NCBI RefSeq assembly: GCF_001677475.2
Contig: NZ_CP015229.1
Length of the DNA: 64,000 bases
Direction: 5' to 3' (one strand)
Origin: Escherichia coli
GTDB taxonomy: Bacteria > Pseudomonadota > Gammaproteobacteria > Enterobacterales > Enterobacteriaceae
A program made the position numbers. How positions within the stretch are numbered: position 1 is the stretch's first letter; every line of letters begins with the position of its first letter. Positions 9,001 to 12,000 of the stretch are shown piece by piece.

Positions 9001-12000
9001 ACCGGGAGGAAATTTTAATGGAAACCGTTTTTGATGCACTGAAAGCAATGGGGAAAGCCACGTCGGTAGAACTGGCTGCGCGACTTGATATCAGTCGTGA
9101 AGAAGTGCTGAACGAGCTGTGGGAACTGAAAAGAAATGGCGTCGTTGATAAAACGGGTCACACCTGGTTTCTGGCTGGTGAAGGTGAATCCGGGGTAACC
9201 GAAGAGCAGCCAGCACAATCTGAAGTACCGGATGTGCTGACCGGGGAGGTCGAACAAAAAGTTACCGCGGACATGATGATTGAGTTTATCTGTCAGGATG
9301 GGGCTAAAACGTGTGAGGAACTGGCGGATAAGTTCGGTGTCAGCACTCGCAAGGTTGCTTCCACGCTGGCGGTGGTAACCGCAACGGGACGCCTGGCACG
9401 CGTAAACCAGAACGGTAAATTTCGCTACTGCATGCCGGGAGATAATTTACCAGCAGAGCCGAAAGCTGCATCGGTAGCGGAAACCGATGGTAAAGCCTTT
9501 CCTCAGCCAGCCGGTGTTGCGTTACCGGTACAGAAAGATGCAACACAGGAAGATATTAAAACAGAAACTGTGGCGGACATTGTGCAGTCGCTGCCATCGT
9601 TTACCGAAACGCGTGCGAATGACCTGATTTTACCATCACTGCATCTGGCAAACCGCGAATTGCGTCGGGCGAAAAGCCATGTCCAGAAGTGGGAGCGTGT
9701 CTGCGCCGCGCTGCGGGAGCTGAACAAGCACCGGGATATTGTTCGACAGATTGCTGATTCTTCCCGCCGTGTTGCATCGGAAAAGTGATTGCCGGAGGCG
9801 CTTATGGCAAAAGTATTTACACAAGAAGAGCGGGAAAAAATTAAGGTACAGGTTGTTGAACTTGTGCGTCTGAGCGGGCGCGAGACGTTACGGCAACTGG
9901 AAGCGAAAACAGGTGCGACAAGATATCTGATGAGTGTTCTTGCCAGAGAGCTGGTTGCCAGTGGCGATTTATACAACTCCGGCTACGGGCTATTTCCGTC
10001 TGAACAGGCACGTAAGGACTGGATAAAGGCCCGCAAAAAGATGTCGAAAGCAGCAGTGAAAAAAAAGAGCGACCCGGACCTGGTTTATTCATTACCAGAC
10101 GGAGAAATACGTCGTTACGACAGGCGTCTGAACATAATCTGTCGCGAGTGCCGGAAGAGTGAGGTTATGCAGCGCGTGTTGGCGTTTTATCAGGGGAAAT
10201 TTCAGGAGGTGATGCTGTGAGTACACCTGCAACCATTCTTGATATGTGCTGTGGCAGCCGTATGTTCTGGTTCGATAAGAATGACGACCGGGCGATATTT
10301 AGCGATATCAGAAAAGAAGAGCACACATTATGTGATGGACGACGCCTGATAATTAGCCCTGACCTGATAGCAGATTTTCGTGCATTACCATTTGCAGACG
10401 CATCGTTTCCGGTTGTTGTATTCGACCCTCCGCATCTTGAGCGTGTTGGTGATAACGCCTGGATGGGAAAGAAATATGGACGGCTGAATAAAGATACCTG
10501 GCGTGATGATTTGCGGCAGGGATTTAAAGAAGCCTTTCGTGTGTTGTGGCCACACGGTGTTCTGATTTTTAAATGGAATGAAACGCAAATACCTGTCCGC
10601 CAGATATTGGCACTAACCGACGCGAAACCAATCATCAGCCAGCGCACCGGTAAGAACGATAAAACACATTGGATTATTTTTGTGAAGGAAGCGACCAGTG
10701 GGTAAATCAAAATGCCAGGTTTATGGCAACAAGATAGAACCGTGTACGGCACTGGCAAACTCCCTTGAGCATGATGCTGAATACACGACGCGAAAAGGTC
10801 TGCTGATATACAAAATCTGGAATGAGAATTTAACTCGCGACCCTGATTTAGTGATGTTGCGTTCCGGTGAATTTTCTAAATCACCAGTTCGGGTTTCATT
10901 TTGCCCGTTCTGCGGTGAAAGTCTGAAAACATGGGAGAACAGAAATGAATGAAATTAGAGAAATACCAGTAGAACGTGATGAATATGGCTGCTGGACACA
11001 TCCAGAATATGAAAAGTTCTGTGACGGTCGGGAATATATTTCAACGGAAGAGTTTAGCGCCTGGATGAAGGCAAATAATCTTCAGTGGACTATTTGCAGC
11101 ATGGATGAAGATTATTTAAATCCGGTTGCAGATGACCCCGATATTTCCGCCTGGGAACCGGAACGACCAGAGGGCAATGGATGGTTTATTGGCTCCATTC
11201 ATGATACTGAAGATGGTCCGGTTTGTGTCTGGTTGCGAAACAAGGTGATGGCATAGATGAGAATAGAAAAAGCGAAAGCACAGCTCAGGATAATGCTTGC
11301 TGGTCCGGCTGCGAGTTATATGACACATTCACCAGCCATAAAGAAGGTTCTTGATGAACTGGAAGATAAAGACAAACGCATTGTAGAATTGACAGACGCG
11401 CTTATGCAAATGATTAATGCGTATAAAATCACAATTCGTTCTGGTTACGAACGCATTACTGAATGTGGTGGTGACTGCGATTCACCAGAAAAGATGATTT
11501 CAGAAAATTCAGATATCAGAATGGCAGAGGCTGTTCTGAAAGCGGAATCCAAATCTGAATAATTAAATTCAGCATTGTAATAAAGATTAATCCTTTACTG
11601 GAGGGAACCCTGCACCCTCAATCATCAGGAGGCCGCCCGAAAGGGCGGTAATGAAAAGTGACTGAATTAACCAAAGAGCAATTAATCGAAGAAGCCAAAT
11701 TAAAAATAGCGATTGCGAAATGCTACCCCAGTTCAGGGATGGCACGGGTAGAGGGCGAGTTATTCAAAATTGCACTGGCATCGCTGGAAGCAGAACCAAT
11801 AGGTGCTTTCCACATTGTAGAACAGCAAGTTGACGGAACAAGTTACTATATCAAGGATGGGGAATGGCCTATTGATACTGGGATTATTGAAGTCTACGCC
11901 GCCTCACCGATGACGGTAGTGCTGAACGATGTATCTGGACCTCTTGCTCTTGCTTACAAAGAGCTTACACCTGCGATTATGCGCAACCATATCGCTGTAT

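Follow-up and report, generated by a model that had tools for sequence, protein, structure and literature searches.

The DNA analysed in this work, hereafter the window, is a 64,000-nt stretch of Escherichia coli contig NZ_CP015229.1 (RefSeq assembly GCF_001677475.2) and is an E. coli lambdoid/Rac-type prophage. Two of its genes, a 101-aa gene ending with the stop codon TAA at 11560-11562 and a 277-aa open reading frame (ORF) with a GTG start at 11658-12491 on the plus strand, are separated by a 95-nt gap, in which there is a short and very stable hairpin, designated here hairpin II, located between a Shine-Dalgarno sequence (SD) and the start codon of the 277-aa gene. From 5′ to 3′ on the plus strand, the site consists of the SD AGGAGG (11627-11632), read directly from the sequence, hairpin II immediately adjoining it (11633-11648, namely CCGCCC at 11633-11638, the GAAA loop at 11639-11642 and GGGCGG at 11643-11648), and the A/U-rich 9-nt spacer TAATGAAAA (11649-11657), which contains no SD-like sequence. 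Direct reading of 11627-11648 confirms the AGGAGG followed by a perfect 6-bp stem with a GAAA loop described in the first-pass annotation, whereas the distance of 8 nt given there between the stem and the GTG codon is correct only if G11632·U11649, an optional seventh pair added by folding, is counted, the 6-bp stem itself being 9 nt away. The linear gap between the end of AGGAGG and GTG is 25 nt (22-25 nt in relatives), which is too long for an SD to function and is reduced to 9 nt when hairpin II is looped out.

The 277-aa protein is a mosaic of two families with unknown function, PHROG 6847 (residues 7-152) and PHROG 14306 (residues 184-273), and no Pfam or NCBIfam family was found for it or for the 101-aa protein. 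The GTG start at 11658, also proposed in the first-pass annotation, is supported by the ATG codon found at exactly this position in the closest relative and at the same position in nearly all the other relatives, with the first codons varying synonymously, as well as by the PHROG profiles, which align from residue 1 of the protein. The GTG variant itself recurs in other loci (L297, the L298 type with 11 loci, and L363).

Hairpin II has a centroid energy of -15.5 kcal/mol (z = -3.15 relative to dinucleotide shuffles), each of its six stem pairs has an ensemble probability of 0.99-1.0, and the spacer bases adjoining it are mostly unpaired in the ensemble. Nowhere else in the window does a perfect, GC-rich 6-bp stem carry a GNRA loop, and 100 shuffles give 0.08 such stems per strand as the chance expectation. 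No second copy of the 22-nt block formed by AGGAGG and the hairpin is present in the window even with up to 3 mismatches allowed, and scanning the window for other SD-hairpin-start arrangements yielded nothing convincing beyond this site. The AGGAGG sequence forms a duplex with the 3′ tail of 16S rRNA with an energy of -9.7 kcal/mol, compared to +0.4 kcal/mol for the spacer TAATGAAAA and the anti-SD, and its GGAG is unchanged across 25 distinct variants of the block. Both the SD and the start codon are left unmasked by hairpin II, as AGGAGG can contribute no more than its last G, to the marginal G·U pair. The hairpin had been thought to overlap the ribosome-binding site (RBS), which does not hold, since the stem neither overlaps nor sequesters the SD or the start but sits between them.

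Hairpin II is not a product of chance, because the same block recurs in 2132 of the 5426 complete E. coli genomes (about 40%), where its 62-nt core was found in 2749 places, up to five per genome, almost all of them chromosomal. The E. coli carriers are always lambdoid or Rac-type prophages. The named phages possessing the cassette include mEp460, ArgO145, Rac-SA53, Rac, PhiR42_1 and several Stx2a phages, and it is located there in the early-left "ea" (PL) region and in the nin-like (PR) region. In a search with a 501-nt query, the flanking genes changed from copy to copy while the segment 11546-11656 retained 83-98% identity at thousands of sites, so the element, the whole of which spans 11546-11657 on the plus strand upstream of unrelated genes, is a widespread conserved intergenic cassette not peculiar to the 277-aa gene, a point absent from the first-pass annotation.

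The copies of the cassette are found in two contexts. In context 1, to which the window belongs, the cassette contains the inverted repeat CTGAAT-AATTAA-ATTCAG (11555-11572), which spans the stop codon of the 101-aa gene, followed by an A/T-rich stretch, an invariant AUCCUU element (11590-11595), hairpin I (predicted; 11600-11619, with GAGGG at 11601-11605, CCCUC at 11615-11619 and a 9-nt loop), a variable linker of 7-8 nt, AGGAGG, hairpin II, the dinucleotide TA, an A/U-rich spacer specific to each gene, and lastly the start codon, all on the plus strand. The sequence TGAATAATTAA inside the inverted repeat provides a stop codon in each of three frames, and its function as a three-frame stop for the upstream genes was considered and rejected, as the real upstream genes use the same (second) stop, TAA; at least three unrelated upstream genes terminate in this one frame (...x-E-TAA). 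The 5′ arm of hairpin I is itself SD-like (GGAGGG). As to promoters, only a weak 9/12 promoter-like match was detected, at 11536-11563, and the cassette shows no convincing sigma-70 promoter.

The UCCU of the AUCCUU element could pair with the AGGA of the SD, which is predicted to give a weak 4-bp helix closing hairpin I; both sides of this helix are kept in all 33 distinct cassette sequences, so there is no covariation by which to judge the pairing. AUCCUU and hairpin I together could mask the SD.

In context 2, the block occurs without the upstream parts, 4 nt past the stop codon of an unrelated gene (...SYHND*), in the layout TAA-TGTC-AGGAGG-hairpin-TAAGAA/TAGTTAA-ATG. Hairpin I is kept in the context-1 copies and absent from the context-2 copies, and is therefore dispensable for the SD-hairpin block. 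What is kept together is the SD, hairpin II and the start, since context 2 carries this block without the upstream elements, and therefore the hairpin is tied to translation initiation and not to those elements. In phage ArgO145 (L215) both contexts are present about 1 kb apart. The two ArgO145 copies, located at approximately 486-525 and 1501-1596, constitute direct repeats bracketing three small genes, which could be deleted or exchanged by homologous recombination between the repeats.

Behind the block lie genes of three or more families with clearly no relationship to each other (DUF7167, DUF4014 and MTELTKEQ), plus others, and the distance between the stem and the start codon varies little: 7 nt for DUF7167 (MRKFKII..., 60 aa), 6 nt for DUF4014 (MKHYLEK, MVTLFRK or MTTLFRK, 72 aa), 8-9 nt for the MTELTKEQ/MAELTK family, 9 nt for MQEIKEN (MQEIKE) and 8 nt for MLTLKH, with MGITKERL (MGITKE/MEITKE) having 11 nt and the spacer TGGAGATAATA. 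The starts annotated in public records are ATG codons 6-9 nt past the stem. In E. coli O157:H7 (EDL933 or Sakai) the gene preceded by the cassette is DUF4014 (for example WP_000683609.1). The arrangement of SD, hairpin and start is conserved in hundreds of copies. When 16 distinct natural spacers were paired with the anti-SD, the energies were from +2.2 to -1.2 kcal/mol, compared to -9.7 kcal/mol for the AGGAGG of the block, with the single exception of the 11-nt spacer TGGAGATAATA, which contains its own GGAG (-6.4 kcal/mol).

Homologues of the same genes without the hairpin have a different organization of the start region. Hairpin-less DUF4014 homologues (75-80% identity; L295, L286, L253, L262 and L294) possess AAAGGAGAGTGAT-ATG/GTG or GGGAGTGAT-ATG, and hairpin-less MTELTKEQ homologues (L347, L353, L356 and L308) possess AAGGAAAACTGAA-ATG, AAGGAAGGTTGAA-ATG or AAAGGAGAGTGAT-ATG, that is, a canonical SD (GGAG) located 4-9 nt before the start with anti-SD energies from -6.2 to -9.1 kcal/mol. 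These genes are thus preceded by one of two alternatives, either an SD at the normal distance or AGGAGG followed by the 16-nt hairpin and 6-9 nt. Termination-reinitiation coupling cannot stand in for the SD in context 1 because about 95 nt separate the start from the stop codon upstream.

Two further small reading frames at the site were considered and rejected. The out-of-frame mini-ORF ATG-AAA-AGT-GAC-TGA at 11651-11665, which begins 2 nt past the hairpin and overlaps the GTG start, is not kept in the spacers belonging to the other gene families. An upstream ORF running through the hairpin and ending at GTGA/ATGA was dismissed, as that frame has no start codon after TAATAA at 11578-11583. 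Among the DUF4014 genes behind the block, 20 of 80 loci (L255-type) carry a frameshift at a poly-A run near codons 7-8 (A7 instead of A8), which cuts the ORF to 26 aa and could be a sequencing error, decay or slippage-prone phase variation.

Taken together, these features favor, with a probability of roughly 0.6, the interpretation that hairpin II is the looped-out structured spacer of a split (structure-bridged) RBS of the kind known for genes 38 and 25 of phage T4. The AGGAGG sequence would pair with the 16S rRNA tail while the very stable 16-nt GNRA hairpin would stay folded and be looped out, so that the gap before GTG, 25 nt here and 22-25 nt in relatives, would shrink to an effective distance of 6-9 nt, which is normal functional spacing. 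The folded hairpin may also stop neighbouring sequences from pairing with the SD or with the A/U-rich start region. The SD, the hairpin and TA would then constitute a portable block of about 24 nt within the boundary cassette of the E. coli lambdoid/Rac prophages, providing any accessory gene placed after it with translation initiation.

We infer that the ribosome uses the upstream AGGAGG and that folding of the hairpin is needed for this. The assignment of AGGAGG as the SD acting at an effective distance of 6-9 nt is based on the fixed spacing, the lack of an SD in the spacers and the canonical SD in the hairpin-less homologues. The effect of the hairpin is expected to be enabling, by bridging the 25-nt gap, and not repressive, because it fills the spacer between the SD and the start instead of sequestering either of them. 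The first-pass suggestion of a translational control element therefore stands in so far as the role is translational, while its form is different, being spacer bridging and not overlap with the SD or the start.

In T4 a hairpin shortens the spacing of gene 38, 22 nt in linear sequence, to 5 nt and that of gene 25, linearly 27 nt, to 11 nt, and mutations destabilising the stem lower initiation (PMC3014915, which reviews the original work of Nivinskas et al. 1999 and Malys and Nivinskas 2009). The site described here resembles them in that the linear distance between the SD and the start exceeds about 20 nt (25 nt here and 22-25 nt in relatives), the hairpin lies wholly inside the spacer and leaves an effective spacing of 9 nt at this site, or 6-9 nt across the relatives, within the range of about 5-11 nt, there is no alternative SD at a canonical distance save for the 11-nt spacer with GGAG, and the arrangement is conserved among related phages. 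It differs from them in sequence and in phage group, the carriers being temperate lambdoid or Rac phages instead of T-even ones, and in that a single block would serve several unrelated genes, whereas in T4 each hairpin serves one gene. Another comparable system is the split ribosome-binding site of E. coli thrS, where, as the work of Sacerdot et al. is presented in PMC3936740, the ribosome takes in a hairpin without unfolding it. Hairpin II would likewise be a folded hairpin inside the 30S binding site; as described in that source, however, the thrS hairpin parts an upstream single-stranded region from the SD and AUG, while hairpin II parts the SD from the start, and the thrS hairpin is the operator of ThrRS autoregulation, while there is no known regulator here.

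Several observations weigh against the split RBS. The MGITKERL family has its own SD past the hairpin, and therefore the block can occur where no bridging is needed. In the 25 distinct block variants 92% of the cells pair, with double changes found in two pairs only (CCACCC/GGGTGG and CCACCA/TGGCGG), and this covariation is not significant, as 92-121 of 500 shuffles (about 20%) match the two compensatory pairs; the RNAalifold consensus of the 33 cassette variants shows no compensatory pair either. Having diverged too little, the copies give weak covariation support, and no divergent homologues able to supply covariation were obtained from 100,044 species-representative genomes. In an unbiased subset the nucleotide diversity (π) is 0.098 for hairpin II, 0.018 for the SD and 0.031 for the linker, so the hairpin is not less diverse than its surroundings, and it folds at -8.6 kcal/mol or below in about 90% of the copies, as do 85% of random single mutants. 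With diversity unreduced and random mutants folding about as often, the comparative data fall short of demonstrating selection on the fold. Folding of the full cassette predicts partial pairing of the AGGA within the SD with UCCU (unpaired probability 0.03-0.55, and 0.55-0.95 in context 2), and this pairing might dampen initiation, which would mean repression instead of activation.

The most serious competitor of the split RBS, possible though in our opinion rather doubtful as a full explanation, is a recombination linker or boundary sequence without any RNA function, providing shared homology for the exchange of lambdoid accessory genes, with the hairpin being a tolerated palindrome. This would explain why the block is found before several unrelated families and follows at least four upstream genes that are not related, in the PL "ea" region as well as in the PR "nin" region, and why similarity ends exactly at the block edges, namely at GGCGGTA| towards 3′ and, when contexts 1 and 2 are compared, at |(C/T)CAGGAGG towards 5′. 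Some junctions are located inside the hairpin (L066, L093 and L371) or directly past it (L064/L065), ArgO145 has two copies 1 kb apart around three genes, and extra constraint on the stem is not measurable. The concept is also established, both for the lambdoid "boundary sequences" (Clark et al. 2001 and Susskind and Botstein 1978, as cited in PMC3029335) and for the PeSLs of T4-type phages, which are mobile regulatory promoter-plus-terminator cassettes (PMC2839356, PMC4122927). The cassette shares with these a short conserved intergenic sequence with a stem-loop, variable genes of mostly unknown function alongside, a location in hyperplastic regions and mosaic junctions; here different copies have unrelated neighbours on either side, and the junctions lie at or within the block. 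In contrast to PeSLs, it has neither a convincing sigma-70 promoter nor a terminator, and hence, with a 9/12 promoter-like match only, lacks their composite of early promoter and terminator, its conserved core being a translation-initiation block. Recombination alone, however, leaves unexplained why the genes following the block lack their own SD, why the start is always 6-9 nt past the stem and why the hairpin-less homologues have a canonical SD, and a pure DNA linker would need neither AGGAGG nor a GNRA tetraloop. A boundary role is likely to be an additional property of the cassette, compatible with the split RBS. A combination of the two, in which the block of about 24 nt is a portable, self-insulating initiation cassette that also offers short homology to Rad52- or Red-type recombinases shuffling accessory genes, possibly under common control via UCCU and hairpin I, is in our view speculative and unlikely in this full form.

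The remaining explanations assign the hairpin to other steps of gene expression. A hairpin that shields mRNA, either the part upstream of it against 3′ exonucleases or the part downstream of it once an A/U-rich sequence has been cleaved, would be consistent with the very high stability of the stem, its A/U-rich RNase E-like flanks and the presence of further hairpins in the cassette, and translation would then start from an A-rich unstructured leader with the distant SD unused. We regard this as improbable, as the invariant AGGAGG abutting the stem would be unaccounted for, together with the 6-9 nt constraint and the canonical SDs of the hairpin-less homologues. Lower still is the chance that the GNRA hairpin is an operator at which a phage or host protein represses or activates the accessory genes, or a site of boxB-like antitermination. 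The hairpin does resemble the fold of lambda nut boxB, another GC stem with a GNRA-type cap transcribed in a lambdoid phage, an identical hairpin before many genes would make a regulon possible, and the invariant UCCU, which can partly mask the SD in the full cassette, hints at regulation. The boxB hairpin, however, has a 5-bp stem with a pentaloop instead of a tetraloop on 6-7 bp, and is preceded by boxA just downstream of PL or PR, whereas the element is far from both promoters, either past the replication genes or within the ea region, and the upstream CAATCATCAGGAGG contains no boxA (CGCTCTTA-like) sequence, so it does not correspond to a lambda-type nut site. The loop is usually GAAA, and GAGA, GGCA, TAAA and 3-nt GAG variants occur, which argues that no specific GNRA contact is required; the block is also present in Rac-type as well as in Stx-type prophages. 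A search of Rfam 15 with positions 10500-13500 at E ≤ 10 gave no match overlapping 11546-11660. We know of no candidate binding protein. Finally, the intrinsic (rho-independent) terminator-like role proposed in the first-pass annotation, or an attenuator, has almost nothing left to recommend it apart from a stable GC-rich stem-loop in an intergenic position. There is no U-tract on either strand (the tails are TAATGAAAAGTG on the plus strand and CCTCCTGATGAT on the minus strand), the terminator scan did not call hairpin II although it called the real terminator at 13173-13190, and, within a gene array, a co-directional start lies 9 nt downstream of the hairpin, which in context 2 is moreover only 10 nt past the preceding stop codon.

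Regarding the distribution of the element outside E. coli, a scan of the 100,044 species-representative genomes with a degenerate pattern of the block gave two matches, both in contigs of metagenome-assembled genomes (MAGs) labelled Collinsella (L124, JAIHTM010000290.1, and L125, JAIJJM010000167.1). These contigs contain the E. coli cassette with the DUF7167 gene almost unchanged and most likely represent E. coli prophage DNA that was binned wrongly, so on the basis of this exact-pattern scan of representative genomes the element appears to be confined to prophages of the E. coli group. An E. coli-type cassette with 87.5% identity was also found beside an Ead/Ea22-like gene in the record of an Actinobacillus phage vB_Apl-pPE4 (PP818812.1), which is unexpected for a Pasteurellaceae phage.

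A locus with 98% identity comes from E. coli 08-00022 and has the gene order racR, ydaT-like gene, replication genes, DUF977, the element, hokD, DUF968 and rusA. PGAP lists there only a partial pseudogene "DUF551, missing N-terminus", while the full 277-aa ORF is intact (L001, 4259-5092) and has an ATG start. In the window, the 277-aa gene is followed by a complete hok/sok type I toxin-antitoxin locus (12781-13194). The sok RNA (Rfam RF01794, 12781-12951, 102 bits) is the sole strong Rfam match near the element, the hokD ORF is located at 12949-13104, and the intrinsic terminator at 13173-13190, called by the scan, has a T-run and is genuine. A sub-threshold isrK-like match (13113-13194, 30.5 bits, E = 5e-4) overlaps this terminator.

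No prior description of the element in lambdoid phages was found in the open-access literature. The mechanism of the split RBS is already known, and what is new here is the phage group, the use of one block for many genes and the high prevalence in E. coli. If the interpretation is true, the element would be a natural split RBS outside T-even phages and the first one shared as a module by many unrelated genes. Programs seeking an SD 5-10 nt upstream would then mis-score the genes behind the block, and the compact natural design of an SD, a 16-nt GNRA hairpin and a 6-9 nt A/U spacer could be tested as an insulated RBS. Were the block also a portable cassette in the wider sense given above, it would represent a natural "standard part" joining expression to modular exchange, and should the bridging mechanism fail, the element would still be a clearly defined boundary sequence conserved among E. 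coli prophages. It is carried by about two of five complete E. coli genomes, O157:H7 and Stx phages included, and in their lambdoid prophages the block delimits accessory-gene cassettes and may help to explain how these genes are exchanged.

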